The notes under the pieces were generated by a model, which saw only the letters and a list, made by a program, of their open reading frames with translations, did no database searches and was not told the DNA's origin. DNA of 45,593 nt from positions 1 to 45,593 of the forward strand of contig CALVLR010000155.1 in the NCBI GenBank assembly GCA_944340685.1, written 5' to 3'. A program made the position numbers and the translations under genes. How positions within the stretch are numbered: position 1 is the stretch's first letter; the number at the start of each line of letters is the position of its first letter. The stretch comes from an uncultured Clostridia bacterium (GTDB lineage: Bacteria > Bacillota > Clostridia > Christensenellales > Borkfalkiaceae). This document shows positions 3,302-34,965 of the stretch, one piece after another.

Positions 3302-4360
3302 ATGAGCAGAACGGATTCCATGAAAAAACAGACGCCGTCCCGCGGGAGGGCTGTTCTGCATATCCTTTGCCTTGCGCTCCTTGCGGCGGCGTTTGAATGT
3401 TTTTATGTGCTTTCGTTCGGATATTTCCGGAATGGGCTGGAAGCGCATTGGTATTGGCTTGCCATAGCCGGCGGGACCTTCCTCAACGCCGCCGTTCTGA
3501 CGGTCGATTACATTTTTTACTTTTTGCGTAAGCAGTTCGTTTACAGAAGCTGCCTGATCGCATATGTTCTGCTGATTTTTATTGCAGTTGTTGCATTCGT
3601 GCTTTTGCAGACCGGATTTGCAGAGGTGATTCGCGATGAAGAAAAGTTTCAGGAATACCTCAGACAGGCGGGGAGCTGGATGACGGCGCTGTTCATCACG
3701 CTTCAGTTTTTGCAGGTCGTCCTTCTGCCCATTCCGAGCACGGTCACGGTCGTGGCGGGCAGCGCATTGTTCGGACCGTTTTACGGGAGTCTTTACAGCC
3801 TCCTTGGAATATTCCTCGGATCGGTTGTTGCGTTTCTGATCGGCAGATATGCCGGATTTCGCGTTGTAGCGTGGATCGTGGGCGAGGATACTCTGACAAA
3901 GTGGCTGGAAAAGATCAAGGGGAAAGACAAACTTTTTCTCTCGGCGATGTTTCTTCTTCCCGTATTTCCCGATGATGTGCTCTGTTTTGTTGCAGGGATC
4001 TCTACCATGTCGCTTCCGTTTTTCATCGTCATTATTCTCATTTCGCGCGTGTTTGCCATTTTTACGACGAGTTACTCGATCACGCTCATCCCGTTCGACA
4101 CATGGTGGGGGATCCTCATCTGGGCGTTGCTGTTTGCGCTCGTGGTCGCTTTGTTTGTATTCCTTTATAAGAAGTCGGACGCGATCCTTGCCTGGTGCGA
4201 TAAGGTCTTCCGCCGCGAAACGCGGATAGAACGCAAAGTCAAAAAAGACGAATTTTCTGTGGAGATCGTCGACGCGGACGGCGCCATCGTCAAAAAGGGC
4301 GTCAAGAAGGAGGGCGACGCGCAGTCGCCGCCCGACCGGACGGATGAGGAGACAAAATAG
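3302..4360 (+). CDS. TVP38/TMEM64 (DedA-related, SNARE-associated) family membrane protein
   Basis: A multi-TM protein with a core segment LLPIPSTVTVVAGSALFGP...FLIGRYAG...LLPVFPDDVLCFVAGIS typical of this family. A charged C-terminal tail follows. Confidence 0.75.
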   Translation: MSRTDSMKKQTPSRGRAVLHILCLALLAAAFECFYVLSFGYFRNGLEAHWYWLAIAGGTFLNAAVLTVDYIFYFLRKQFVYRSCLIAYVLLIFIAVVAFVLLQTGFAEVIRDEEKFQEYLRQAGSWMTALFITLQFLQVVLLPIPSTVTVVAGSALFGPFYGSLYSLLGIFLGSVVAFLIGRYAGFRVVAWIVGEDTLTKWLEKIKGKDKLFLSAMFLLPVFPDDVLCFVAGISTMSLPFFIVIILISRVFAIFTTSYSITLIPFDTWWGILIWALLFALVVALFVFLYKKSDAILAWCDKVFRRETRIERKVKKDEFSVEIVDADGAIVKKGVKKEGDAQSPPDRTDEETK

Positions 4361-4588: not shown

Positions 4589-5806
4589 ATGCAATCGGTT
4601 GTAGTGATCGGCGGAGGCGCTGCCGGACTGATGGCGGCATATACTGCTGCGAGCCGCGGGAGGAAGGTCCTGCTCCTCGAAAAAAACGAAAAGTTGGGAA
4701 AAAAGATCTATATCACGGGGAAAGGGCGGTGCAACGTGACCAACGACTGTCCGCCGGAAGATTTTCTGGCGAATGTGGTAAACGGAAGCCGCTTTCTCAC
4801 GCGTGCAGCATATGCCTTTCCCGCCGCAAGTGCAATGGAATTTTTTGAGGAGCATGGGCTTGCGCTCAAAGTGGAACGCGGAAATCGCGTGTTTCCCGTT
4901 TCCGACCATGCGAGCGACGTCACAAAAGCGCTTGAATGCGCCTGCCGCGATGCGGGCGTGGAGATCCGATTGAACGAAGCGGTAACGGGAATCGGGCAGC
5001 GCGACGGCGCTGTTTGCGCCGTGTATAGCGAGAAGTCTGTTTATGAATGCGAAAGCGCGGTGATCGCAACAGGCGGATGCTCCTATCCTTCGACGGGATC
5101 GACGGGAGACGGCTATCGGTTTGCCGAGCAGCTTGGGCATGCGTGCGAAGCGCGCACGCCGTCGCTCGTAGGGATCGAGCTGCGGGAGGACGTCTCTGCT
5201 GCGCAGGGCGTTTCGCTCAAAAATGTAACGCTTACGGCAAAACGCGGGCAAAAAACCATCTTTTCCGAGATGGGGGAACTACTTTTCACGCATTACGGAA
5301 TGAGCGGACCGCTTGTTCTTACGCTCTCTGCGTTGATCAACAGGCTGCCGCTCTCGGAGATCTCGGTGTGGCTGGACTTAAAACCTGCGCTCGATGAAAA
5401 AAAACTTGACGAGCGGCTTTTGCGCGACTTTGCGGAGCGCAGGAACGAAACGATGAAAAACGTTATGCGCGGTCTTCTGCCTGCGGGAGTCGTGCAGATC
5501 GTACTTCGCGCCGCCGGAATATCGCCGGAAAAACAGGCAAATGCCGTAACACGGGAGGAACGGCGATCGCTTCTTTCGGCACTCAAAAAATTGCCGTTCT
5601 CGCCGAAGGCCCTGCGCGGCTTCCATGAGGCGGTCGTGACCGCCGGAGGGGTTGCGCTGCGCGGGATCGATCCCGCTACCATGCAGAGCAGGCTCGTGAG
5701 AGGGCTGTATTTTTGTGGCGAAGTGCTCGACTGCGACGCTTTTACGGGCGGGTTCAATCTGCAAATCGCGTGGAGTACCGGTTATTTGGCAGGGAAAAAC
5801 GCATAA
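4589..5806 (+). CDS. HI0933/YhiN (BaiN-like) family NAD(P)/FAD-dependent oxidoreductase
   Basis: The N-terminus MQSVVVIGGGAAGLMAA...LEKNEKLGKKIYITGKGRCNVTN and the C-terminal GEVLDCDAFTGGFNLQIAWSTG are family hallmarks. ATG at 4589 follows a GAGGA SD. Confidence 0.85.
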   Translation: MQSVVVIGGGAAGLMAAYTAASRGRKVLLLEKNEKLGKKIYITGKGRCNVTNDCPPEDFLANVVNGSRFLTRAAYAFPAASAMEFFEEHGLALKVERGNRVFPVSDHASDVTKALECACRDAGVEIRLNEAVTGIGQRDGAVCAVYSEKSVYECESAVIATGGCSYPSTGSTGDGYRFAEQLGHACEARTPSLVGIELREDVSAAQGVSLKNVTLTAKRGQKTIFSEMGELLFTHYGMSGPLVLTLSALINRLPLSEISVWLDLKPALDEKKLDERLLRDFAERRNETMKNVMRGLLPAGVVQIVLRAAGISPEKQANAVTREERRSLLSALKKLPFSPKALRGFHEAVVTAGGVALRGIDPATMQSRLVRGLYFCGEVLDCDAFTGGFNLQIAWSTGYLAGKNA

Positions 5807-5872
5807 AATATAGTTTTGCATAGTAATATGCGTGACATAATATATAAGTTTTTGAAAGATTATGTCGTTTAT

Positions 5873-5901
5873 TTGACATTTTATACGAAATGGCGTATGA
5901 T
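5873..5901 (+). promoter_or_regulatory. sigma-A type promoter for the aroH-cmk / plsC / ispH-rpsA operon
   Basis: TTGACA (5873-5878), a 17-nt spacer, then TATGAT (5896-5901). Confidence 0.6.
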
Positions 5902-5918
5902 AAATGAGGAGGCAGTAA

Positions 5919-6926
5919 ATGACGGTAATACGAGGGGCAACCACGATCGCAGAAGATACTCCCGAGGAGATCCGTGCGGCGGTAAAAGAACTTCTGGAAC
6001 AGATCGAGAGCAGAAATGCGCTCAAGCGCGACGAGGTGGTGAGCATTGTTTTTTCAAGTACCTCGGACATCCATTCCTTCTATCCCGCGAAGGCTGCGCG
6101 GGAGGCGGGGTTTGAGAGCTGTTCGCTTTTCTCGGCGCAGGAACCCGATATTGACGGAGGGCTTCGGCTCTGTATCCGCGCAATGCTCTTTATTGAGAAA
6201 AACGATACGCCGCACCATGTGTATTTGCACGGCGCGAGGGCGCTCCGCAAGGATGTGGCGCAAAAATTCAACGTTGCCATCGACGGTCCCGCCGGAAGCG
6301 GCAAATCTACGATCGCCAGAATGCTGGCGCGCGACTATCATATTTTATATCTGGATACGGGCGCGATGTACCGCGCCTGTGCGCTCGCTGCTTTGCGCGC
6401 GGGAGTCGATATTGCCGACGAAAAGCAGGTGTGCGATCTGATGCGCGGCGTGTCGCTGAACGTCGTCTACCGCGACGGCGAACAGCATACGATGCTTGGC
6501 GGCGAGGATGTCTCGGATCTGATCAGAACGCCCGAGGTCTCTATGGCTGCGTCCGCCATTTCCAAACACATCAGCGTGCGGATGAAAATGGTTGAGAAAC
6601 AGCGGGAGATCGCGGGGAAAATGTCTTGCGTGCTTGACGGAAGGGATATCGGTACGTTTGTGCTTCCGGATGCCGATTTCAAATTTTTCCTGACGGCGAC
6701 GCCGGAAGTGCGCGCCAAACGACGTGCCGACGAGATGACCGCGAAGGGATATACGGTGGACTTCGAGGCATTGAAAAGAGAGATCGCCGAGCGCGACCGG
6801 CAGGATTCTACGAGGGAGATCGCGCCCTTGAAGCAGGCGGATGACGCCGTGCTCATCGATACTTCGGAGATGTCGGTCGAAGAAGTTCTGCGTACGATCA
6901 AAAGTAAAATGCAGGAGAAGATCTGA
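5919..6926 (+). CDS. cmk: fusion protein: AroH-type chorismate mutase (N-terminal, about 115 aa) plus cytidylate kinase (C-terminal)
   Basis: Residues 1-115 (VIRGATT, FYPAKAARE, GGLRLCIRAM, HHVYL) align with the B. subtilis AroH catalytic motifs. From NVAIDGPAGSGKST onward (LDTGAMYRA, DGRDIGT, RDxxD) the protein is Cmk. It is one uninterrupted ORF preceded by a GAGGAGG SD. Confidence 0.85.
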   Translation: MTVIRGATTIAEDTPEEIRAAVKELLEQIESRNALKRDEVVSIVFSSTSDIHSFYPAKAAREAGFESCSLFSAQEPDIDGGLRLCIRAMLFIEKNDTPHHVYLHGARALRKDVAQKFNVAIDGPAGSGKSTIARMLARDYHILYLDTGAMYRACALAALRAGVDIADEKQVCDLMRGVSLNVVYRDGEQHTMLGGEDVSDLIRTPEVSMAASAISKHISVRMKMVEKQREIAGKMSCVLDGRDIGTFVLPDADFKFFLTATPEVRAKRRADEMTAKGYTVDFEALKREIAERDRQDSTREIAPLKQADDAVLIDTSEMSVEEVLRTIKSKMQEKI

Positions 6927-25243: not shown

Positions 25244-27073
25244 ATGCGTTTTTACTTTAATCCATTGAACAAAGCCTGCAAGTCCCATACGGGAGCTTTT
25301 CCGCGCGGTTCCGTCGTCACATTCCGGATCTACTGGGATGAGGACGGGGAAATGCCGCATGACATCGATGCAAGTTTTGTCTTTTTTCAGGATGGAAAAG
25401 AGAGGACGGCTCTCTCCATGCAGCGCATGGAGAGAGGGTTCTTTGTTTCTTTGCGCTTTCATCAGGTCGGACTATACTTCTATTATTTCCGCATCGGGGA
25501 TGATTTTTTCGGGTGCGGAAGATACCGTGACGGCGTGATCACCTCAAACAAAGCCAATCTGAGAACATGGCAGATCACCGTCTTCGGAGAACATTACACA
25601 ACGCCCGACTGGATGAAAGGCGGCGTGATGTATCAGATTTTTCCCGATCGTTTTCACAAGGTCGGCGAGCTTCCGATCGCAGCGTGGAAAGTCCGCCGCA
25701 GTGATTGGGGCGGCATGCCGACGTACAAGCCGAACGAATACGGAAAAGTTTTAAATAACGATTTCTTTGGCGGCAATCTCAACGGCATTACTGAGAAACT
25801 CGATTATCTGAAGGAACTCGGCGTAACCGTCATCTATCTGAATCCGATTTTTGAGGCATATTCCAATCACCGGTACGATACGGGCGATTATCTGAAAATC
25901 GATCAGCAGCTCGGAACGGAGGAAGATCTGGACCGACTTGTTTCGGAGGCAAAAAAACGCGGGATCCGGATCATTCTGGACGCAGTTCTCAATCATACAG
26001 GATCGGACAGCCGCTATTTTAACCGATACGGCCACTACGACAGTGTCGGTGCGTTTCAATCTCAGCAGTCTCCTTATTACGAGTGGTACCGTTTCCGCAG
26101 TTATCCGGAGTCATATGAGAGCTGGTGGGGAATCGACACACTTCCCAACGTGAACGAGCAGTCTCCTTCTTATCAGAATTTCGTTTTCGGGGAGAACGGC
26201 GTATTAAAAACGTGGCTGCGCCACGGTGTCAGCGGGTATCGTCTGGACGTTGCAGATGAGCTGCCTGACTTTTTCCTTCAAAAGCTCCGTACGGCAGTCA
26301 AAGAAGAGACGCCTGACGCGGTTGTGATCGGCGAAGTCTGGGAGGACGCATCCAACAAAATTGCATACAGCGAACGCAGGCAGTATTTACAGGGCTACGA
26401 GCTGGACAGCGTGATGAATTATCCCTTGAAGGACGCGATCATCAGCTATGTGCAGTCGGGCAATACGTCTCAGCTCCGCGAGACGCTGTACATGCTGATC
26501 GATAACTATCCGAAGCAGACGCTCGACTGTCTGATGAACATTCTTGGAACGCATGACACGCCGCGCATCCTCACTGTATTGGGCGGAAAAACGTGCGCCA
26601 ATAAAGATGAGATGGCAGTTACTTCCATGGATGAGAAGGAAGTTTCCGCTGCAAGAAAAAAGCTGAAGATGGCTGCCGTTTTGCAATTCACGCTTCCCGG
26701 AGTTCCCTGCATTTATTACGGAGATGAAAATGCGATGCAGGGGTATCAGGATCCGTTCTGCCGCGGCTGTTTTGATTGGGTGAATACCGATGAAGAACTG
26801 CTTGCATTTTACCGTAAATTGGGCGCTTTGAGAAAAGAATTTCTTCCGTTCCGGGAAGGCGATTACGACGAATTGTTTTCAGACAGCGGATGCATTGTCT
26901 ATGAGCGCCGCACAGGCGACCAGGTGGTTTACATTTACGTCAATAACTCCAACGGCGTTTATACGATCCATTTTGACGGCGAATACCTGGAACATCTTAC
27001 GCAGACAAAATTTTCCGGAAGACTTACTTGCGATCCATATTCCTACGGGATTTTTACGAAAATTTCCAAATAG
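25244..27073 (+). CDS. GH13 alpha-amylase-family enzyme (neopullulanase / cyclomaltodextrinase-like)
   Basis: Contains the conserved GH13 regions DAVLNH, GYRLDVADE, GEVWED and GTHDTPR, plus an N-terminal Ig-like domain. Substrate specificity cannot be resolved from sequence alone. Confidence 0.85.
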   Translation: MRFYFNPLNKACKSHTGAFPRGSVVTFRIYWDEDGEMPHDIDASFVFFQDGKERTALSMQRMERGFFVSLRFHQVGLYFYYFRIGDDFFGCGRYRDGVITSNKANLRTWQITVFGEHYTTPDWMKGGVMYQIFPDRFHKVGELPIAAWKVRRSDWGGMPTYKPNEYGKVLNNDFFGGNLNGITEKLDYLKELGVTVIYLNPIFEAYSNHRYDTGDYLKIDQQLGTEEDLDRLVSEAKKRGIRIILDAVLNHTGSDSRYFNRYGHYDSVGAFQSQQSPYYEWYRFRSYPESYESWWGIDTLPNVNEQSPSYQNFVFGENGVLKTWLRHGVSGYRLDVADELPDFFLQKLRTAVKEETPDAVVIGEVWEDASNKIAYSERRQYLQGYELDSVMNYPLKDAIISYVQSGNTSQLRETLYMLIDNYPKQTLDCLMNILGTHDTPRILTVLGGKTCANKDEMAVTSMDEKEVSAARKKLKMAAVLQFTLPGVPCIYYGDENAMQGYQDPFCRGCFDWVNTDEELLAFYRKLGALRKEFLPFREGDYDELFSDSGCIVYERRTGDQVVYIYVNNSNGVYTIHFDGEYLEHLTQTKFSGRLTCDPYSYGIFTKISK

Positions 27074-27100
27074 TATGTCAGACATAATACTGATGTATCT

Positions 27101-27130
27101 ACGGCGGATTTTATCCGCCGTTCTGTTTTC
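27101..27130 (+). terminator. intrinsic terminator at the end of the glycogen cluster
   Basis: ACGGCGGAT-TTTA-TCCGCCGT followed by TCTGTTTTC. Confidence 0.7.
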
Positions 27131-27313
27131 GTATCAGGGAAAAATATGCTTTTTTCCTTATTGCGTGTGTCCAAGAACGACACAGACGGATTACCGATCC
27201 TGAAAAAACGTATGTCAATGTGCCGTGAGCGCGTCCGGTTTGTGATCGATCTGATTTTATGAAGAATCTGGTGATTTTCCTGAAAAATATGGCATTTCAG
27301 GTGTATTTTTCCC

Positions 27314-27351
27314 ATAACTATTCGTAAAAGCTGTGTTTTACGAATAGTTAT
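27314..27351. repeat. perfect 16-6-16 palindrome ATAACTATTCGTAAAA GCTGTG TTTTACGAATAGTTAT (candidate recombinase core site)
   Basis: Read directly from the sequence. Both 16-nt arms are exact reverse complements and the central 6 nt are asymmetric. Confidence 0.95.
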
Positions 27352-27456
27352 ATTTGTTTCCCCATCACCCAAAAAAGCAGTCGGCTCTTTTTTAAGCGCG
27401 CTGTTTTGATACATCGTTCTCATGCACGCCTGATGAAACTGAAAAACTTTCTCCCC

Positions 27457-27471
27457 TAACTATTCGTAAAA
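27457..27471 (+). repeat. third copy of the palindrome arm (TAACTATTCGTAAAA), abutting the recombinase promoter -35
   Basis: It is identical to 27315-27329. With the preceding CCC the direct repeat is 19 nt with 1 mismatch (27311-27329 versus 27453-27471). Confidence 0.9.
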
Positions 27472-27500
27472 TTGACTCAGACCCTTTTTTGTGCTATAAT
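27472..27500 (+). promoter_or_regulatory. sigma-A promoter (extended -10) of the XerS-like recombinase gene; the predicted TSS coincides with the ATG
   Basis: TTGACT (27472-27477), a 17-nt spacer ending in TGC, then TATAAT (27495-27500). ATG at 27507 lies 6 nt downstream and no SD is present. Confidence 0.6.
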
Positions 27501-27506
27501 GTTTGT

Positions 27507-28577
27507 ATGGCAAATCTGACGATGGACGGCTCCGATTATTATCGCGAGCGCAATCTCAAAAATCTTGATAAGATCGATGTACTTCTCGAGGAACTTCCCT
27601 ATTTCTGCGAGGATTTTCTGCGCGGCGTGGAAACGCGCACAAGTACTTTGACGCGCCTCAATTATGTATACGATCTTCGGATCTTTTTTGATTTCCTCTC
27701 TAAAAAGAAGTTCCGCGGCAAAAATGTCCGTGAGATCACTTTGGAAGATCTTGAAGCTGTGACGGATACCGATATTGAGATTTTCCTCAGTTACCTTTCC
27801 AATTACCGCTTTCATGAGAAGCGCCTCTCCTGCGACGAGCGAGCAAAGGCGCGCAAGCTTTCTGCCGTGCGGTCGATGTACAAGTATTTTTTTCATAAAG
27901 GTCTGATCGAAACGAACAACGTCTCCAAGGTCGCTACGCCGAAACTTCATGAAAAGGAGATCATCCGTCTGGAAGGCGCCGAAGTCCCCTCTCTTTTAAA
28001 AACTGCGGAATACGGCGACGGGCTTTCCAAACACGCGGCCGGCTATCATGAAAAGACGAAGATCCGCGATACGGCGATCCTTACCCTCTTTTTGGGGACG
28101 GGGATCCGTATCTCCGAACTCGTAGGCCTGAACGATGAAAGCATCGATTTTTCGAACAACTCTTTTGTCGTTACGCGCAAAGGCGGGAATAAAGCCATTC
28201 TCTATTTTTCAGAGGAGGTCGGCGATGCGCTTGCGGCTTATCTTGCGCAGAAAGAAGAAGATCCAAATGTCCCCGCTGACGAGCATGCCCTCTTTCTCTC
28301 CATGCAATACAGGCGTATCACCGTTCGGGCGGTTGAAAATTTAGTCAAAAAATATGCCAAGATCGTGACGCCGCTCAAAAAAATCACGCCGCATAAACTG
28401 CGCTCAACCTACGGTACGGCGCTTTATCGCGAGACGGGCGACATTTACATCGTCGCGGATGTTCTCGGTCACCGCGACGTCAATACGACGAGAAAACACT
28501 ATGCCGCGATCACGGAAGATCACAGAAAATCGGTTGCAGGCGCCGTCAAACTGCATGATGATCGGGAGGACGACTGA
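27507..28577 (+). CDS. XerS-like tyrosine site-specific recombinase
   Basis: Catalytic signature is present: GTGIRISEL (Arg), TPHKLRST (HxxR) and GHRDVNTTRKHY (His/Tyr). Its 356-aa length, the VTRKGGN segment and the N-terminal LPYF...YVYDLRIFFDFL resemble streptococcal XerS as I remember it. The alternative start is ATG 27522. Confidence 0.85.
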   Translation: MANLTMDGSDYYRERNLKNLDKIDVLLEELPYFCEDFLRGVETRTSTLTRLNYVYDLRIFFDFLSKKKFRGKNVREITLEDLEAVTDTDIEIFLSYLSNYRFHEKRLSCDERAKARKLSAVRSMYKYFFHKGLIETNNVSKVATPKLHEKEIIRLEGAEVPSLLKTAEYGDGLSKHAAGYHEKTKIRDTAILTLFLGTGIRISELVGLNDESIDFSNNSFVVTRKGGNKAILYFSEEVGDALAAYLAQKEEDPNVPADEHALFLSMQYRRITVRAVENLVKKYAKIVTPLKKITPHKLRSTYGTALYRETGDIYIVADVLGHRDVNTTRKHYAAITEDHRKSVAGAVKLHDDREDD

Positions 28578-28579
28578 AT

Positions 28580-29800
28580 TTGGAGAACGTTTATATTTTG
28601 CAGCCCGTGATTTCCGACCGTTCCGAGGCGCTGCACGATGAAGCCGTGGCGCTCATCGAGAGCGCGGGCGCGGCATATGCCGGCACGATGTACGCTCGGA
28701 TCCGCGAGGTCAATCCCGCTACCTATATCGGAGAAGGAAAACTCGCGGAGCTTTGCGAGCGCCTGCGCGGGCTTGACGTGACGGTGCTGTTCAACGGCGA
28801 GCTGTCCCCTTCTCAGACGGTCAATCTTTCCGAGGGATTGGAAGGAAAAAAGGTCATCGACCGCACGACGCTGATCCTCGATATTTTTGCGCTGCGTGCA
28901 GAGAGCAGCGAAGGGAAATTGCAGGTCGAGCTTGCGCAGCTTCGCTATCTCTATCCGCGCCTGAAGGGAAAAGGCAGCGCGCTGTCCCGTCTCGGCGGCG
29001 GGATCGGTACGCGCGGCCCCGGGGAGACGCAGTTGGAAACCGACCGCCGTCATATCCGGTCGCGCATCCGTTCCTTGGAGGAAAAGCTCGGCAAGACCGA
29101 GAAACGGCGCAGTCTGCAAACACAGCGCCGTCAAAAGGACGGCGTGCGCACGGTCGCGCTCGTAGGTTATACGAATACAGGGAAATCTACCCTTCTCAAT
29201 GCGCTTACCGGCGCCGACGTATTTGTAAAGGACGCTCTTTTTGCGACCCTCGACCCTACATCGAGACGCTTGGAAATTCAAGGCATGCAATTTTTGCTCG
29301 TTGATACGGTCGGTTTTTTGCAGGATCTGCCGCATCACCTCATCGAGGCATTCCGTTCCACACTGGAAAGCGCGCTCCACTGCGATCTGTCGCTCATCGT
29401 ATGCGACGCAAGCGCCGACTACGAGACGCAGTTTCGAACGACCATGGATACGCTCACAGACCTTGGGTTTGCCGCGCCGTACCTGCTTGTAATGAACAAA
29501 TGCGACAAGGCTGCTGCGGCAGGACAGATGGCTGCCCTTCCGCATGACGCCGTTTGCATTTCGGCAAAGACGGGAATGGGACTCGACCGGCTGAAAGCCG
29601 ACATCTTTTCCAGACTGCGCGACCGCTTTGTCTGCGTTGAGCTGTTTGTTCCGTACGCGCACTCCGCACAATACGGAGCGATCCGTTCCCTGCTCTCCGA
29701 ACGGGAGATCGAATATACCGAAGAAGGCATGAAGGTGCAGGCGGTGATCCCGATCGAACATGCCGAAAAGTTCCGCAGCTTTTCGCAAACGGCGCGATGA
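28580..29800 (+). CDS. hflX: GTPase HflX
   Basis: Contains the HflX N-domain (IDRTTLILDIFALRAESSEGKLQVELAQLRY), GTRGPGETQLETDRR, G1 GYTNTGKSTLLN and G3 DTVGF. TTG start at 28580 lies 10 nt after GGGAGG. Confidence 0.88.
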   Translation: MENVYILQPVISDRSEALHDEAVALIESAGAAYAGTMYARIREVNPATYIGEGKLAELCERLRGLDVTVLFNGELSPSQTVNLSEGLEGKKVIDRTTLILDIFALRAESSEGKLQVELAQLRYLYPRLKGKGSALSRLGGGIGTRGPGETQLETDRRHIRSRIRSLEEKLGKTEKRRSLQTQRRQKDGVRTVALVGYTNTGKSTLLNALTGADVFVKDALFATLDPTSRRLEIQGMQFLLVDTVGFLQDLPHHLIEAFRSTLESALHCDLSLIVCDASADYETQFRTTMDTLTDLGFAAPYLLVMNKCDKAAAAGQMAALPHDAVCISAKTGMGLDRLKADIFSRLRDRFVCVELFVPYAHSAQYGAIRSLLSEREIEYTEEGMKVQAVIPIEHAEKFRSFSQTAR

Positions 29801-29822
29801 TCGATATGCAGCAGAGAAACGG

Positions 29823-29847
29823 AAAGACGGGCTTTTTGCCCGTCTTT
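29823..29847. terminator. bidirectional terminator between hflX (+) and the Cys-rich gene (-)
   Basis: AAAGACGGGC-TTTTT-GCCCGTCTTT, a 10-bp stem flanked by A and T residues. Confidence 0.8.
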
Positions 29848-30041
29848 TACTTCTTGTTTTCGCGTTCGTATTCTTTCGGATCGGTATAGATTTTATCGAT
29901 CTTGATCGCGGCATACTCTCGGATATTGAGGCATTTGCCGCAGTTATCGCAGATCTTGTTTGGATCGAGGTCGCAGATCTCGCATTCCATACAGCCGTCG
30001 CATTCCTTCTCGTCGTCGAGGACGCACATTTTCCGTTCCAT
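29847..30041 (-). CDS. small (64 aa) 8-cysteine protein of unknown function, divergent from lexA
   Basis: The sequence is MERKMCVLDDEKECDGCMECEICDLDPNKICDNCGKCLNIREYAAIKIDKIYTDPKEYERENKK. Its cysteine pattern is C-x7-CxxCxxCxxC-x7-CxxCxxC. It has its own -10 element and terminator. I chose the ATG at 30041 because the TTG at 30089 lies at or before the predicted TSS. Confidence 0.6.
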   Translation of the reverse strand: MERKMCVLDDEKECDGCMECEICDLDPNKICDNCGKCLNIREYAAIKIDKIYTDPKEYERENKK

Positions 30042-30094
30042 AGTGATAAGTATACCCTCTTCTTCCGGAAAAGGCAAGAAATTTTGCAAAAAAA

Positions 30095-30124
30095 ATTATA
30101 TTTTTTTAGAACAAATGTTTGCAA
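30095..30124 (-). promoter_or_regulatory. sigma-A type promoter for the Cys-rich gene, sharing its -35 with the lexA promoter
   Basis: Read on the minus strand: TTGCAA (30124-30119, a palindromic hexamer), an 18-nt spacer, then TATAAT (30100-30095). Confidence 0.5.
30108..30121. promoter_or_regulatory. LexA operator (Cheo / SOS box)
   Basis: AGAACAAATGTTTG matches the Gram-positive consensus CGAAC-N4-GTTYG (GAAC-N4-GTTT). It overlaps the -35 of lexA and lies between the two divergent -10 elements. Confidence 0.8.
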
Positions 30125-30147
30125 TTTCGGCGCTCTTATGCTATAAT
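30119..30147 (+). promoter_or_regulatory. sigma-A promoter (extended -10) of lexA
   Basis: TTGCAA (30119-30124), a 17-nt spacer ending in TGC, then TATAAT (30142-30147). Confidence 0.65.
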
Positions 30148-30168
30148 CATTTTAAGGAGGATCCTCCC

Positions 30169-30774
30169 ATGCTGAATCAGAGAAAATTAGACGAAGTTCT
30201 GGCGTTTATCAACCGTTATACAGATGAAAACGGCTTTCCCCCTACAGTACGCGATATGTGCAGGGAGCTGGGTATCAAATCGACGGCGACCGCCTACGAT
30301 TACATCAATCGTCTCAAGGAACAAGGGCATCTCGAAAAGGCAGCGGGCAAAAAGCGCGCGGTCTCGTTAAAAAGCACGGGCGGCACGGTGCGTATCCCGT
30401 TGGTGGGAACGGTTACCGCAGGTACTCCCATTCTTGCGACGGAAAATTATGACGGATACTATGTCCTCCCCTCTGCAGAGTTTGCGGGAGACGGACTCTT
30501 TCTGCTGACCGTTCGGGGCGACAGCATGATCAAAGCAGGCATTTTTAACGGGGATAAGATCGTCGTACGCAAGCAGGAGACGGCGGAGAACAACGATATT
30601 GTCGTCGCGATGTTTGACGACGGCATCTCCGAGGGCGCAACGGTCAAACGGTTTTTCCGCCGCGGCGGAAAAATCGTGCTTCATCCTGAGAATGACGCGC
30701 TGTCTGACTATGAGCTTGATGAAGTTACCATTCTCGGGAAAGTGATCGGACTTATCCGTTCCAACATCGAATGA
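30169..30774 (+). CDS. lexA: SOS repressor LexA
   Basis: Has an N-terminal winged HTH, the VTAG cleavage site, the GDSM Ser nucleophile and the VVRK Lys of the S24 peptidase. An AAGGAGG SD precedes the start. Confidence 0.95.
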   Translation: MLNQRKLDEVLAFINRYTDENGFPPTVRDMCRELGIKSTATAYDYINRLKEQGHLEKAAGKKRAVSLKSTGGTVRIPLVGTVTAGTPILATENYDGYYVLPSAEFAGDGLFLLTVRGDSMIKAGIFNGDKIVVRKQETAENNDIVVAMFDDGISEGATVKRFFRRGGKIVLHPENDALSDYELDEVTILGKVIGLIRSNIE

Positions 30775-30786
30775 TCCAATTGTATG

Positions 30787-30817
30787 GAAAAAGCGCAGCG
30801 AATCGCTGCGCTTTTTG
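30787..30817. terminator. bidirectional terminator at the convergence of lexA (+) and rluB (-)
   Basis: AGCGCAGCG-AAT-CGCTGCGCT flanked by AAAAA and TTTTT. Confidence 0.85.
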
Positions 30818-30819
30818 TA

Positions 30820-31524
30820 TTACAGATTTTTCAGATAGAAAACTTCGTCCTGCGAGAGTTTTCGTACCTTGCCGCGGTCGAGTCCCGTCAGCGTCAGATC
30901 GCCGATCCGGATGCGTTTGAGAAAATCAACATTTTTTCCGATCACCTCGAACATACGGCGGATCTCGCGGTTCTTGCCTTCGGTGAGCACTACATGGAGC
31001 TTCGTATATTTTTTATTTGTTTCCATGACCGTCACTTTGCACTTTTTTGTGACGACTCCCCTTTCGATCTCGACGCCTGCTCTGAGCCGATTCAGCTGGA
31101 TATCGGTAATCGTGCCTTCAATGCGCACGAGATATGTTTTTGCGATCTCGCTTTGCGGGGCGGTGAGACGATATGCAAGTTCTCCGTCATTGGTCAGGAT
31201 GAGCATCCCCTCCGTATCGTAGTCAAGCCTGCCGACGGGAAATACGCGTCCTGTTCCTGCGGGAAGAAGGTCCATCACCGTCTTTCTGCCTTTGTCGTCG
31301 GAGACGGTACAGACGTACCCTTTCGGCTTGTTGAGAAGATAGTACTCATATCTGACTTTGTGAGAGAGCGTTTTTCCGTCGAGCATGACGGTGTCGGAAG
31401 CGGAGACGTCGTCGCCCGCTTTTGCGATTTTTCCGTTGATGGTAACGCGGCCGTCCGCTACGATCTCGTCGCATCCGCGTCGGGAGGCTACGCCCTGTTC
31501 GGCAAGAAATTTATTGATTCGCAT
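30820..31524 (-). CDS. rluB: RsuA/RluB-family 23S/16S rRNA pseudouridine synthase
   Basis: Has an S4 domain (MRINKFLAEQGVASRR), the catalytic motif GRLDYDTEGMLILTNDG and KTY...REIRRM. Confidence 0.88.
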   Translation of the reverse strand: MRINKFLAEQGVASRRGCDEIVADGRVTINGKIAKAGDDVSASDTVMLDGKTLSHKVRYEYYLLNKPKGYVCTVSDDKGRKTVMDLLPAGTGRVFPVGRLDYDTEGMLILTNDGELAYRLTAPQSEIAKTYLVRIEGTITDIQLNRLRAGVEIERGVVTKKCKVTVMETNKKYTKLHVVLTEGKNREIRRMFEVIGKNVDFLKRIRIGDLTLTGLDRGKVRKLSQDEVFYLKNL

Positions 31525-31539
31525 GGTGATTCCCAAACT

Positions 31540-32553
31540 TTATTCATTCGTTTGTTCCATGATATATAAATTTTGCGAAAAAAGCAAGCGATTCTCCAGG
31601 AGAATTTGCATTTGCCCCGCGATTTCTCCCGCCGTTTCGGGGCGCGGTTCAATGAAAGTGAGCCGGCGTTCGACCTGCGCCTGTTCCCGATCGGTGAGCG
31701 GATAAGAAAAATGATAGCGGATCTTGCATCCATCGACAGTTTCGTCCTGCGAGCAGAGCTGCGTAAGCGAATACGCTTCAAATGCATGATCGAGCAGCGC
31801 TGCGGAACGCTCGTACATGGACGGGCAGTTCAGGACAACGGAAACAACCGTCATACCCTCCCGTTCGGCACCCGTTACAAGGCATCTCCCCGCTTCCGTC
31901 GTGAACCCTGTTTTAATGCCCGCTGCGCCCTCATACTGCGCCAGCATCTTGTTTTTATTCGCCCAGTTCCGCGGGGAATAATATTTGGTGGAGACGATGG
32001 TGCGGAAGGTATCGTTTTCCATTGCGTGCGCGGCAATCAGCGCCAGATCGCGCGCCGTTGTGCGGTGATCTTCGGCGGGCAAGCCGTGCGGATTGGCGAA
32101 GGCGCTGTCCGTTGCGCCGTAAAAAACTGCCCGTTCGGTCATCTCCTGTGCGAAGGCGCGGATACTTCCGCTGTGGTGCAGGGCAAGTGCGACCGCAGCG
32201 TCGTTGCCGGATCGAAGCATCAGCCCGTACAGCAATTCTTCGATCGTATAGCGTTCGCCTGCGCGCAGGTAGATACTCGAGCCTTCTGTTCCCGCTGCTT
32301 CGGCAGGGATCTCAATCGTCTCGGTCAGATCGCAGTCTTCTATGATGATGATTGCGGTCAGTATTTTTGTCGTGCTTGCTATCGGTAGGCGGCGTTCCGC
32401 ATTTTCTGTGTGCAGGACCCGCCTTGACGAGACCTCCACAACGCACTCGGCGCCGGACAGAGAAGCGCCTTCGGCGCTGACGCGGGCATGAACAGGAATG
32501 ATCGCAAGAAACAGCAGCGCCGCCGCGGCAACGCAGCAAACCGGTTTATTCAT
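31540..32553 (-). CDS. serine-type D-Ala-D-Ala carboxypeptidase (peptidase S11, DacB-like)
   Basis: Has a signal peptide plus the SxxK (ASTTK), SxN (SGND) and KTG (KTGFT) motifs. It lies downstream of scpAB, as dacB does in Bacillus. Confidence 0.85.
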   Translation of the reverse strand: MNKPVCCVAAAALLFLAIIPVHARVSAEGASLSGAECVVEVSSRRVLHTENAERRLPIASTTKILTAIIIIEDCDLTETIEIPAEAAGTEGSSIYLRAGERYTIEELLYGLMLRSGNDAAVALALHHSGSIRAFAQEMTERAVFYGATDSAFANPHGLPAEDHRTTARDLALIAAHAMENDTFRTIVSTKYYSPRNWANKNKMLAQYEGAAGIKTGFTTEAGRCLVTGAEREGMTVVSVVLNCPSMYERSAALLDHAFEAYSLTQLCSQDETVDGCKIRYHFSYPLTDREQAQVERRLTFIEPRPETAGEIAGQMQILLENRLLFSQNLYIMEQTNE

Positions 32554-32914
32554 CGCCGCGTTTGATCATCCTCCCGAGGAGGTCGCCCGCCTTCTCAATG
32601 AGCCCGTCAAGCGGATCGTCCGTGACGCGGACGAGACGGCATTCCTTTCCGTCGTCGATGAGAAATCCCGCCGGCTTGACATTGACGACGGTCCCTGCGC
32701 CGCCGGCAAACGGAAGGCATTCGCCGTCTTCGATTTTTTTGACGTCGCCGTATTCTCCTCCGCCCGAGAGATACCCCATCGTCACTTTGGTGAACGGTAT
32801 GACCTGCGCGCCGCTCGCTGTAATGACGGGCTTCCCGATGACGGTGTTCACATCCACAAGTCCGGTCAATTTTTCTGCCGTTTTTTCCATGATTCTGTCG
32901 ATCTTTTTATCCAT
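32546..32914 (-). CDS. ytfJ: GerW/YtfJ-family sporulation protein
   Basis: The core VIGKPVITASGAQVIPFTKVTMGYLSGGGEYG...AGGAGTVVNVKPAGFLI is typical of YtfJ. ATG at 32914 follows a GGAGGG SD. Confidence 0.85.
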   Translation of the reverse strand: MDKKIDRIMEKTAEKLTGLVDVNTVIGKPVITASGAQVIPFTKVTMGYLSGGGEYGDVKKIEDGECLPFAGGAGTVVNVKPAGFLIDDGKECRLVRVTDDPLDGLIEKAGDLLGRMIKRGDE

Positions 32915-33441
32915 TCCATCAAACCCTCCAACATTTTTTTTGTGAGCGCGATCGCGAGCACAAGCCCGTTGAAGACCACGGCTGCGCGGACCGAAATTTT
33001 CAGGCATCGTTCGTTATGCAGGAGAGAGCGGTTTTTCAACGAGAGGAAATTGCGATTTTCCCGCAGGACAGAAAAGACCGCGCCCGCCGCAAGCGTGAGA
33101 AAGGCTGCAATGAGCACGCCTTTTGGCTCATTTGCGCCGTCCGTCTCCACGATCTGATGATAGCGCCAGAGCTGGAACCCCTGCGTGATCTCGAATTGCT
33201 TGCGCGCCGCCGCCATTTCCGAATACTGCAGCAGAATCGCTTTTTTCTTTGTAAGATGAAATACAAATCCTTCCGTCCGTATCTCTGCATATCCGCCGAA
33301 CAATTTGAGCTTGTGGAACAGCGATATGCAAAACCATGCGCGGTTGCCCGAAACATCGGCATATGCATCCACATACAAAAAGACGGGAAATAAAAAAAGG
33401 ATCGTGCCTGCAAAGAACGAATATACAAAAAATTCGCCCAT
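32866..33441 (-). CDS. DUF2953 / YtfI-like membrane protein
   Basis: Has an N-terminal TM helix and sits directly upstream of ytfJ, as in the Bacillus ytfI-ytfJ pair. Its start codon lies inside the 3' arm of the scpB terminator. Confidence 0.55.
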   Translation of the reverse strand: MGEFFVYSFFAGTILFLFPVFLYVDAYADVSGNRAWFCISLFHKLKLFGGYAEIRTEGFVFHLTKKKAILLQYSEMAAARKQFEITQGFQLWRYHQIVETDGANEPKGVLIAAFLTLAAGAVFSVLRENRNFLSLKNRSLLHNERCLKISVRAAVVFNGLVLAIALTKKMLEGLMEWIKRSTESWKKRQKN

Positions 33442-33459
33442 ATCCGTAATATGGGCGAA
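33427..33459 (-). terminator. intrinsic terminator after scpB that overlaps the ytfI-like start codon
   Basis: Read on the minus strand: TTCGCCCATAT-TACGG-ATATGGGCGAA followed by TTTTTT. The stem is 11 bp and starts 20 nt after the scpB stop. Confidence 0.75.
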
Positions 33460-33476
33460 ACGCTGTAAAATTATGT
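33447..33476 (-). promoter_or_regulatory. possible forespore (sigma-F/G type) promoter for ytfI-like/ytfJ
   Basis: Read on the minus strand: ACATA, an 18-nt spacer, then CATATTA. From memory the sigma-G consensus is GHATR-N17/18-CAHWHTA. The -10 ends 5 nt before the ATG. Confidence 0.3.
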
Positions 33477-33479
33477 AAT

Positions 33480-34172
33480 TTAATCGATTTTGACGATGTC
33501 GGCATCGTCCAGCCCTTTGAGGAAATCGGGGATCTCATATCCGCCGCTTTCTTCGTCGGGACTTTTCTTTGTTTGGCTGCCTTCCGCTGCGGCAGTCTCT
33601 TCGGCGGGAAGTTCGTCGCGCGCATAGAGATACGTATCGCGGTCTTCATCGGAGTGGGAGATCGCCGCCATCAGGGCGTCGTAGTCGGGCAGTTCTTCCA
33701 GAGAATGCAGCTTGAACCTCTTCAGAAACTCATCTGTCGTAGCAAACAGGACGGGACGGCCGACGGCGTCCTTTCTGCCGCACGGGTAGATGAGCTTCAG
33801 ATCGAGCAGCGCATTGACGGCATAGTCGCTGTTGAGTCCGCGCAGAAGCTCGATCTCCGTACGCGTGATCGGCTGTTTGTATGCGATGATGGCGACTGTT
33901 TCCAAAATCGTTTTGGTGAGTTCCTTTTCGCGGATGGGATTGAGCACCGCGGAAACGCCCTCTTTGTATTTCGGGTTGGTTCCGAGCTGCGCTTTTTTAT
34001 TAAATTCGAGAAGCTGGATCCCTCCGTCTTCGCCGTATTTTTCGCGAAGCTCTTTGAGCGCTTTTTTGACTTCGCCTTCCGTGACGTTGAGCTTGTCGGC
34101 AATATCCGCAATGGGAACGCCCTTCCCGGAAGCAAACAGGATCGCCTCAATCGTATTCGTCAATATTTCCAA
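33480..34172 (-). CDS. scpB: segregation and condensation protein B
   Basis: Contains IEAILFASGKGVPI and the AYKQPITRTEIELLRG / GRPVLFATT motifs. The start is assigned to TTG 34172, 6 nt after AAGGAGG, overlapping the end of scpA. Confidence 0.85.
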   Translation of the reverse strand: MEILTNTIEAILFASGKGVPIADIADKLNVTEGEVKKALKELREKYGEDGGIQLLEFNKKAQLGTNPKYKEGVSAVLNPIREKELTKTILETVAIIAYKQPITRTEIELLRGLNSDYAVNALLDLKLIYPCGRKDAVGRPVLFATTDEFLKRFKLHSLEELPDYDALMAAISHSDEDRDTYLYARDELPAEETAAAEGSQTKKSPDEESGGYEIPDFLKGLDDADIVKID

Positions 34173-34965
34173 GGTCAGCCTCCTTGTCCCTGTCGGGATT
34201 GAGCGAGATTGTGATCTCGCCGAACGCATGTTCCTGTTTTACGCGCAGGAACTGATATTTGAGAAGTTCGAGAATTGCCTGAAATGTCGTAACGATCTCC
34301 GGCTTTGTATAATCATGCGTGAAAAGCTGTTCAAACTGCACCTGCTGCTTTTCTTCAAGACATTCCAAGACAAATTGGATTTTTTCTTCCACGGTGAACG
34401 AGTCACGCGGGATCTCGCGCACTTCGTCTTCTTTCAGCTCCTCTTCCCGCTTCAGCAGCAGCGCGGAGTAGGCGGAAATGAGTCCGTCCAGCGTGAGGTT
34501 TTCCATGGTGAATATGGTGCGCGTTTCACCGACATCCTTATCCGGTTCCTTGAAATAAAAGCCGATCGTCTCGAGCTCTTTGAGCTTTTTCGTCTCTTCC
34601 TTGATAAGGCGGTATTCTTCGAGCGCGCGGATGAGTTCGGCTTTGTCCTCTTCGATCTCCGCTTCGAGTTCCGGATCTTCCGTCAGATTCGGCACAAGCG
34701 CCTGCGCCTTGATTTTGATGATCGTGGCGGCGATATTCAGATATTCGCTCACTTTGTCTACGTCGAGGTAAGGCAGTCCCTTCATATAGTCGAGGAACTG
34801 TTCGGTGACCTGCGAAACAAATACATCTTTGATCTCGATCTCTTCGCGGTTGATGAGATACAGAAGAAGATCGAGCGGGCCTTCAAAGCCGTCGAGGACA
34901 GTCGTATAGTCGACGTTCGATTCAAATTTTTCGCTGATGGACTTGATGCGATCCTGGTCTACCAT
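34147..34965 (-). CDS. scpA: segregation and condensation protein A
   Basis: FEGPLDLLLYLINREEIEIKDVFVSQVTEQFLDYM is the canonical ScpA N-terminus. Confidence 0.9.
   Translation of the reverse strand: MVDQDRIKSISEKFESNVDYTTVLDGFEGPLDLLLYLINREEIEIKDVFVSQVTEQFLDYMKGLPYLDVDKVSEYLNIAATIIKIKAQALVPNLTEDPELEAEIEEDKAELIRALEEYRLIKEETKKLKELETIGFYFKEPDKDVGETRTIFTMENLTLDGLISAYSALLLKREEELKEDEVREIPRDSFTVEEKIQFVLECLEEKQQVQFEQLFTHDYTKPEIVTTFQAILELLKYQFLRVKQEHAFGEITISLNPDRDKEADLGNIDEYD

Follow-up and report, generated by a model that had tools for sequence, protein, structure and literature searches.

We analysed a stretch of 45,593 nucleotides of DNA from an uncultured Clostridia bacterium (Christensenellales, Borkfalkiaceae; contig CALVLR010000155.1 of assembly GCA_944340685.1), hereafter called the window, in which a perfect palindrome lies upstream of a gene encoding a tyrosine recombinase of 356 amino acids (aa). 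A preliminary description of this DNA had reported a 38-bp palindrome of the 16-6-16 type, with mismatch-free arms around an asymmetric spacer, in an AT-rich non-coding gap of about 430 bp in front of this gene, and had proposed that the two form a xerS/dif-like module for the resolution of chromosome dimers. The palindrome was found in the sequence exactly as described, and the gap measures 433 bp with a G+C content of 39%, compared with 52.7% for the window. As argued below from sequence comparisons, the palindrome holds a conserved core site which, together with the recombinase, most likely forms a one-recombinase, dif-type module at the replication terminus. The positions of the features are given in Table 1.

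Table 1. Features of the palindrome-recombinase locus in the window.
Feature	Position	Strand	Remarks
Perfect palindrome, 16-6-16	27314..27351	.	ATAACTATTCGTAAAA-GCTGTG-TTTTACGAATAGTTAT; arms of 16 nt, spacer asymmetric
Left arm of the conserved 34-bp core, AACTATTCGTAAAA	27316..27329	+	Proposed site for one recombinase monomer
Central region GCTGTG, 6 bp, asymmetric	27330..27335	.	Proposed strand-exchange region
Right arm of the core, TTTTACGAATAGTT	27336..27349	+	Proposed site for a second monomer
Solitary third copy of the arm, exact AACTATTCGTAAAA	27458..27471	+	Proposed autoregulatory binding site; abuts the -35 box; 15-nt form TAACTATTCGTAAAA at 27457-27471
Recombinase promoter, TTGACT-17-TGcTATAAT	27472..27500	+	Consensus scan, 11/12 matches plus TG extension
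Tyrosine recombinase, 356 aa, XerS-like	27507..28577	+	Catalytic set R201, K225, H296, R299, H322, Y332 complete
24-nt direct repeat, copy 1 (10 nt of left flank plus left arm)	27306..27329	+	Copy 2 at 27448-27471, 92% identical
Terminator-like hairpin and T-tail of the upstream amylase-family gene	27101..27131	+	G+C-rich hairpin 27101-27121, consensus scan
Skew switch zone	27000..33000	.	Cumulative maximum at ~32.4 kb; negative past 34 kb
Gene strand switch, + to -	~30.8 kb		After lexA

The gap extends from the stop codon of an alpha-amylase-family gene (27073) to the ATG of the recombinase gene (27507), and 155-156 bp separate the end of the palindrome from this ATG. Upstream, the + strand carries glgB, glgC, glgD, glgA, a glycogen phosphorylase gene and the amylase-family gene; downstream, it carries the recombinase gene, hflX and lexA. 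Beyond lexA, the genes for a pseudouridine synthase, dacB, the YtfJ spore protein, scpB and scpA lie on the - strand. No mobile-element genes near the site were found in the window annotation. Given the base composition of the window, the number of perfect 16-nt inverted repeats expected by chance is 1.1e-5 at a fixed spacing of 6 nt and 9e-5 over spacings of 3-10 nt. An open reading frame (ORF) of 126 aa runs across the palindrome on the - strand (27043-27423); it was rejected as a gene, being called in none of the five assemblies of the species. One same-species assembly (L004, ERZ16268270 scaffold_5806, positions 1-30; L numbers are our labels for loci and contigs) stops within the palindrome and holds the right arm only, the contig end being probably an assembler break at the inverted repeat.

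Relatives of the locus were found with a profile of the recombinase family in contigs representing one genome per species. We obtained 80 loci of about 21 kb, with a protein identity of 55-94%, and all 80 come from metagenome-assembled genomes (MAGs) of gut or rumen Clostridia of the Christensenellales kind. The nearest named genome is a Candidatus Gallimonas MAG, with a recombinase that is 94% identical. The site was present in 62 loci in all, and the comparisons of the site are based on 55 non-redundant loci, i.e. 55 species. The alignment of the orthologous intergenic regions, which the preliminary description had suggested as a check, therefore shows the site conserved in 55 species that carry the recombinase. 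The conserved unit is 34 bp long, with AACTATTCGTAAAA-N6-TTTTACGAATAGTT as alignment consensus. Complementarity between the arms extends over exactly 14 positions and is random farther out. The outermost 2 bp of each arm in the window thus lie outside the conserved unit, only the inner 14 bp being kept across species, and their palindromy in this genome is, on the evidence of the alignment, accidental.

Counting outward from the spacer, the AAA/TTT at positions 1-3, C7:G and T9:A are invariant (55/55), and position 6 is G:C in 53 species. Other positions vary on both arms at once. At position 8, 40 species have T:A and 15 have G:C, always paired; position 5 is T:A in 35 species and C:G in 11, with the intermediates T:G (5 species) and C:A (4 species); paired transversions across both arms occur at positions 10, 11 and 13. 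Since both types of mismatch are found, neither strand is favoured. The spacer has 6 nt in all 55 species and is self-complementary in none of them. The spacers GCTGTG, GCTGCA and GCCGTG recur within related sub-lineages, and the orientation of the spacer differs between lineages (CTTGTC vs. GACAAG; CACAAG vs. CTTGTG). The invariance of the sequence, the balance of the mismatch types and the fixed spacing point together to a double-stranded DNA site for identical subunits, and not to an RNA hairpin.

A palindrome between two genes of the same strand could also form a hairpin in RNA or DNA and serve, behind the amylase-family gene and ahead of the recombinase gene, as an intrinsic terminator or attenuator. 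A consensus scan does call the palindrome terminator-like, with a 16-bp stem followed by ATTTGTTT, and the predicted RNA fold is stable (-18 kcal/mol, z = -6.1). However, the amylase-family gene is equipped with a G+C-rich terminator of its own and does not need the palindrome for this purpose, and the strongest recombinase promoter is situated on the 3' side of the palindrome. T-runs were found after only 7 of the 55 sites, and the stem has 3 G-C pairs out of 16. Moreover, many positions are fixed in sequence and not only in pairing, with T:G as well as C:A intermediates; solitary arms exist, which cannot pair; and no Rfam family matches. We therefore regard a hairpin function as highly improbable.

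The full site occurs once per locus and lies upstream of the recombinase gene in 55/55 species. The preliminary description had noted that many genomic copies would point to a repetitive extragenic palindrome, and no such multiplicity appeared: a single full site was found per ~21-kb locus, and in close relatives from metagenomes the site with the spacer of the window had no match away from the orthologous locus (L237, L240). Across the relatives, anything from 36 to 6807 bp separates the site from the start codon, with a median of a few hundred bp, and in several lineages serS and another host gene intervene between the site and the recombinase gene. Given a distance so variable, and one that can include host genes, the full site does not behave as a promoter element of fixed position. 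In the closest species, down to 86% recombinase identity, the order of the genes is kept, with the glycogen genes on one side of the site and the recombinase-hflX-lexA and scpAB side on the other. Amylase-like and hflX-like genes also flank the site in metagenome relatives, with about 70% identity.

A third copy of the arm stands alone at the promoter of the recombinase gene. The ATG of this gene lies 6 nt past the extended -10 box, with no Shine-Dalgarno sequence, and the recombinase mRNA is probably leaderless, to judge from this spacing. The same layout, i.e. arm, TTGAC, about 17 nt, TGnTATAAT and an ATG 6-7 nt farther on, was found in the window and in at least eight relatives (L010-L013, L015, L032, L033, L073), and the arrangement of the arm recurs in L016 and others. 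In 40 species, the full site is more than 110 bp away from the gene start; in 18 of these 40, a solitary arm is retained no more than 110 bp from the ATG, against a background rate of 0.002 per 110 bp. The solitary arm is each time the species' own variant (CGTTAAA in L074; GCGCAAAA in L053 and L058), and it remains at the promoter where the full site is 1.2-3.9 kb away (L033, L059, L068, L073). Arm specificity and the promoter of the recombinase gene are thus linked, which makes the recombinase most simply the arm-binding protein. The simplest reading of these co-varying sequences would be that the recombinase binds the arms and regulates itself. In the window, the 24-nt direct repeat suggests that the promoter-proximal arm arose by local duplication.

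The position of the solitary arm against the -35 box also fits a purely regulatory operator, to which a dimeric protein would bind, both at the palindrome and at the promoter arm, without any recombination. In line with this, the full site lies within 110 bp of the start codon in 15 of the 55 species, and two promoter-near variants with a 9-bp spacer (L027, L041) might bind protein without recombining. Yet the full site can be as far as 6.8 kb from the gene, with host genes in between, which is not expected of an operator. Together with four further points given below where they arise, this leads us to consider an operator alone distinctly unlikely.

We then examined the recombinase. Its Pfam domains are an integrase catalytic domain and a SAM-like N-terminal domain. 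Among NCBIfam models, XerS (NF003462) scores best (203.4 bits), followed by XerC (165), XerA (156) and XerD (145), and the relatives P0121, P0279, P0293 and P0304 score 179-209 bits on the XerS model. A XerS control sequence reached 558.5 bits on this model and is therefore a valid control. Aligned with this control by BLASTP, residues 20-342 match residues 7-351 with 27% identity (E = 3e-26), collinear from end to end. The preliminary description had called the enzyme XerS-like. This stands as far as the best curated family, the length and the collinearity are concerned, whereas the identity is low, the score is below the cut-off of the family and the site is not difSL-like in sequence or geometry. 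The enzyme is therefore better described as distantly XerS-like.

The recombinase family is large, with 752 clusters at 50% identity (E < 1e-30), and most of the best 150 are about 340-360 aa long. Among 49 diverse family members, R201, H296 and R299 are invariant, and K225, H322 and Y332 are found in at least 90%. Such retention of all catalytic residues across the family is a second argument against an operator without recombination. The AlphaFold model (mean predicted local distance difference test, pLDDT, of 93.8) has a Xer-type clamp fold, and the nearest solved folds are XerA and XerH, which match best, and further the integron integrase, Tn1549 Int, the lambda Int core and Cre. Neither the 45-kb window nor 1.29 Mb of terminus regions from relatives yielded a second tyrosine recombinase. 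The dif sites of Bacillus subtilis and Escherichia coli and difSL had no match in the 45-kb window at up to 8 mismatches. Within the window, neither a canonical dif nor a partner recombinase was thus found, and the preliminary remark that the arms do not resemble the canonical Firmicute dif was borne out.

The position of the site relative to the replication terminus was assessed from the GC skew. In the window, the skew stays positive over the first 27 kb, is close to zero up to 33 kb and turns negative farther on. In the related loci, the 8 kb to the left of the site show a positive skew in 37/41 cases and the 8 kb to the right a negative skew in 38/41, the skew being higher on the left than on the right in 40/41. 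The cumulative maximum is at most 4 kb away from the site in 25 out of 33 loci. A peak of cumulative skew at the locus is a signature of a replication terminus. The terminus location proposed in the preliminary description is thus supported by a change in the sign of the skew at the window locus and in 40 of the 41 related loci. In addition, the association with the skew persists where other genes separate the site from the recombinase gene: the site follows the skew switch and not the promoter, which is again unlike an operator.

At such a location, the palindrome might instead be a Ter-like site for replication termination, bound by a fork-arrest protein. In favour of this possibility are the terminus location, the palindromic sequence and the presence of a related site at the promoter of the adjacent gene; in Bacillus subtilis, Ter sites adjoin the autoregulated rtp gene. 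However, the adjacent gene encodes here a catalytically complete tyrosine recombinase and not an RTP-like or Tus-like protein. Ter sites are also multiple and oriented, whereas a single symmetric site is found here, and the proviruses and plasmids described below do not fit fork arrest, nor do the phages that carry the site. A Ter-like role is, in our opinion, extremely improbable.

A scan of viral contigs with the family profile picked out about 20 short proviral contigs, each ending at a gene for a homologous recombinase (45-57% identical). In the clearest case (L104), a 4.9-kb microvirus provirus, with genes for a Chlamydia-phage-type scaffold protein, capsid protein F, a DNA pilot protein and Rep, lies between two sites, AACTATTTGCAAAA-AAGGGC-TTTTGCGGATAGGG and ATCTATTCGCAAAA-GCATAG-TTTTGCGAATAAAG. 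Beyond the provirus are a recombinase gene (57% identical to that of the window) and lexA. The two flanks on the phage side, TATAACTTCC and GGAAGTTATA, are reverse complementary to each other, as expected from a palindromic phage site split by a crossover within the site. An operator would not account for a provirus between two sites with its junction inside the site. Related microvirus DNA adjoins the recombinase gene in L105 and L113. In L027, a 6.5-kb insert with a rolling-circle Rep gene lies between a full site and the variant with the 9-bp spacer, and in several proviruses called in isolate genomes, CCAACTATTCGCGAAA-GTCTAG-TTTAACGAATAGTTGG lies beside inovirus-like genes (a G2P-type Rep and a weak match to Zot). 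Small viruses thus appear, from these junctions, to use the site to insert themselves, a behaviour known for integrase-less elements exploiting dif (PMC7062461, PMC3091885). Related free microviruses, with 42-48% capsid identity, do not carry the site. A different palindrome, GCCAAGTACCT-N6-AGGTACTTGGC, also with a spacer of 6 bp, is common to several of the free microviruses L264-L274 (IMG/VR) and may be their equivalent of the site in another host.

The site is not restricted to chromosomes and small viruses. Exact 14-bp arms with other spacers were found in six IMG/VR contigs, and in three of these six the site lies 100-650 bp upstream of terminase and portal genes (L101 8133-8166, L102 11015-11048, L103 2294-2327); on the other side of the phage site, small uncharacterised ORFs were seen in the one contig examined. 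The tailed-phage contigs L202, L213 and L249 also carry an exact 14-6-14 site at this distance upstream of the genes for the large terminase and portal proteins. No recombinase homologue was found on the site-bearing tailed-phage contigs within the sequence covered, and these phages could use their site for attachment or, in a lox-like manner, as a substrate of the host enzyme. In total, 72 metagenome stretches possess the site, and about half of them adjoin a recombinase homologue. In one of them (L188), the site is at the end of a Rep3 plasmid initiator gene. Such occurrences on phages and plasmids outside any promoter context are the last point against an operator.

Named plasmids carry recombinase homologues with 31-38% identity. 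In pNP144 of Butyrivibrio hungatei (L275), the homologue is 38% identical and has TATTGCGTTAAA-CATATC-TTTAGCGCAATA (3870-3905) just upstream. Directly downstream of this homologue, and convergent with it, the plasmid has another tyrosine recombinase gene (299 aa, 5122-6021). In plasmid p12/29 of Clostridium botulinum (L277), TTACTATAAA-N6-TTTATAGTAA occurs twice, at -719 and -63 from the start of the recombinase. The distal spacer of this plasmid (GTAACA) is asymmetric and the promoter-near one (TTATAA) symmetric, which parallels the distal site and the promoter-proximal element of the window. For the xerS gene of a Bacillus thuringiensis megaplasmid (31% identical), no convincing site of the 14-6-14 type was found upstream. 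On a chromosome, a 48% identical relative has GCGTCGCAAAA-TGTCAA-TTTTACGACGC at -61, with a skew switch between convergent genes. The presence of a module of site and gene on both chromosomes and large plasmids fits a role in the resolution of replicon dimers. A further homologue (38% identical) was observed on an Agathobacter MAG contig (L090, L091) near genes for a Rep3 initiator, an actin-like partition protein, a topoisomerase and a LexA-like repressor, a plasmid-like context.

In L211, two exact sites (636-669 and 800-833) are inverted relative to each other, about 130 bp apart, with the spacers GAATTG and CAATTC. The same inverted pair is present in L189 (2544-2577 and 2706-2739), where the outer flanks are inverted repeats, maybe because of an assembly fold-back. 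The segment between the paired sites is a candidate invertible DNA segment. This pair bears on another reading, according to which site and gene do form a recombination module but with a different main role, either as the attachment site and integrase of an old, fixed mobile element or in DNA inversion, dimers being resolved by XerCD elsewhere. The plasmid-like and phage-like contigs that carry remoter relatives of the recombinase would also agree with it, as would XerCD genes encoded outside the 45-kb window. On the other hand, the gene order around the site is conserved in the closest species and the window has no mobile-element genes nearby. Furthermore, the constant position at the skew switch and the single site per locus leave nothing to invert or excise. 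We consider such a different main role unlikely.

Taken together, these results indicate that the 34-bp core is very probably a recombination site of the adjacent recombinase. For the fuller claim, that the core is the target of this recombinase with chromosome dimer resolution as its main role, our confidence is good, if lower. The reading of the preliminary description as a xerS/dif-like dimer-resolution module is supported by the conservation of the site, its single occurrence per locus, the skew switch, the lack of matches to a canonical dif in the window and to a second recombinase in the window and the related terminus regions, the provirus between two sites and the promoter arm that co-varies with the site. 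Several points nevertheless weigh against it. Binding, cleavage and resolution are all inferred from sequence comparisons. The coverage is 45 kb of the genome, so a canonical XerCD/dif system may coexist and resolve dimers, and the uniqueness of the site was seen only over this ~45-kb window and as one site per ~21-kb related locus, element insertions aside. About 15-20 of the 80 related loci have no clear site within the sequence covered. The skew data from the related loci are not independent, as most loci are syntenic, and the cumulative-skew maximum is often 2-5 kb off the site. The recombinase misses the equivalog cut-off of NF003462 (203 bits, with the cut-off at 267), its match covering model positions 5-352 of 360. 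Finally, the spacers of the two L104 sites, AAGGGC and GCATAG, are unrelated, which a simple crossover between matching centres does not explain; a free microvirus with the reconstructed phage attachment site (attP) of L104 was not found by a scan for the exact pattern, and neither was a close relative with an empty site to pair with L104, the best flank match being 64%.

If the core is indeed the target of the adjacent recombinase, each of the identical arms would be clamped by one recombinase monomer. A chromosome dimer would unite two copies of the site, and four monomers would synapse them. Strands would then be swapped across the central 6 bp via a Holliday junction, giving two monomeric chromosomes, and the asymmetric centre would set the relative orientation of the paired sites. 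Through the solitary arm beside the -35 box, the enzyme could sense its own concentration (autoregulation). Plasmids may use a module of site and gene against their own multimers, while small viruses and some tailed phages may carry or use the site to integrate or circularise.

To our knowledge, XerS of the Streptococcaceae and XerH of the Campylobacterota are the only bacterial recombinases known to resolve chromosome dimers without a partner. The present module, if confirmed, would be a third such system, found in an abundant and mostly uncultured order of gut Clostridia. More broadly, and as a tentative proposal to which we give slightly less than even chances, the Christensenellales, and probably other Clostridia and large plasmids, would possess an unrecognised single-recombinase Xer system that replaces XerCD. 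It would consist of a symmetric, lox-like 14-6-14 dif site and a leaderless, self-regulated, distantly XerS-like enzyme, and would serve as a common point of entry and resolution for microviruses, inovirus-like elements, some tailed phages and plasmids of gut Clostridia. The full symmetry of the site also poses a question of mechanism, namely what sets the order of strand exchange, and any control by FtsK, when the arms are identical. In practice, the site would be a sequence marker of the replication terminus in metagenome-assembled genomes, and the shared 34-bp site would link tailed phages and plasmids to their hosts. A compact 34-bp site with one recombinase is also a candidate tool for genome engineering in Clostridia.

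Other observations concern the surroundings of lexA and the - strand genes. With lexA two genes downstream, the palindrome was considered as a LexA operator and rejected: the arms are unlike GAAC-N4-GTTC, and the sole such motif in the window, at 34222, is at chance level. Between hflX and lexA, an ORF of 60-76 aa lies on the - strand (about 29850-30100; L001 12338-12568), divergent from lexA. Division inhibitors under SOS control, e.g. YneA, are encoded in a similar location beside lexA. In the vicinity of the ORF, no GAAC-N4-GTTC box was found. Farther on, from 30800 to 34300 on the - strand, a rluB-like gene, dacB, ytfJ, scpB and scpA form a region that resembles the scpA-scpB-dacB-rluB region of Bacillus. 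In Bacilli, xerD neighbours scpAB (PMC8136486), and by analogy the recombinase of the window may sit where an ancestral xerD was.

Compared with known systems, the module is similar in organisation to XerS/difSL of Streptococcus and Lactococcus (PMC1914069, PMC2965235). Both encode one recombinase, about 356 aa long, whose N-terminal extension is absent in XerC and XerD. In both, the site lies directly upstream of the gene, as one module, at a GC-skew switch. The arms end with ...CG(N)AAAA towards the centre in both cases, the left arm of difSL being TTTCCGAAAA. Unlike the symmetric 34-bp 14-6-14 site described here, difSL has 31 bp, with unequal arms (TTTCCGAAAA and TTTTCTTGAAA) and a centre of up to 11 bp. 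FtsK dependence was shown for XerS, and we found no solitary promoter arm described for XerS in the literature. The host also differs, since it belongs here to a spore-forming lineage of Clostridia, and XerS, with the exception of a single Lactobacillus genome, was reported as confined to the Streptococcaceae (PMC3025954). The literature outside subscription journals yielded no account of a XerS-like/dif system for Clostridia or Christensenellales.

XerH/difH of Helicobacter and Campylobacter (PMC3325230; Bebel et al. 2016, as cited in PMC5357621) also combines a single recombinase (354-362 aa) with a site near its gene, at the terminus, and its arms end with GAAAA beside a 6-bp centre (AGTTATGAAAA). 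XerH-DNA complexes are among the best structural matches of our model, with template-modelling (TM) scores of 0.58-0.63. However, the identity in the structural alignment is only 16-19%, the sequence match has E = 8e-7, the arms of difH are imperfect and unequal (11 and 10 bp) and the host belongs to a different phylum.

With XerCD/dif, the likeness lies in the elements that exploit the terminus site. Its dimer-resolution site is likewise used by small single-stranded DNA phages without an integrase, the integrative mobile elements exploiting Xer (IMEX), among them the CTX, VGJ and TLC phages; in Enterobacteria, prophages of gokushoviruses sit at dif (PMC7062461). Microviridae proviruses were also described in Bacteroidetes (PMC3091885), and prophages of microviruses were given only for Bacteroidales, Hyphomicrobiales and Enterobacteriaceae (PMC9753089). 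The site described here would thus explain lysogeny of integrase-less microviruses in Clostridia, hosts that are absent from this list. In contrast to XerCD/dif, there is here one recombinase gene beside the site, the arms are symmetric and not XerC and XerD halves, and the site has no sequence similarity to the canonical 28-bp dif.

The closest system in geometry is Cre/loxP of phage P1, in which one recombinase also acts alone on a 34-bp site with identical arms and an asymmetric spacer. The two differ in the layout of the site (13-8-13 for loxP) and in the enzyme, which is 12-15% identical to Cre in the structural comparison. Cre/loxP belongs to a plasmid prophage and not to a chromosome terminus, and loxP lies near pac in P1. 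In the same way, the site described here is found in tailed phages close to the packaging genes.

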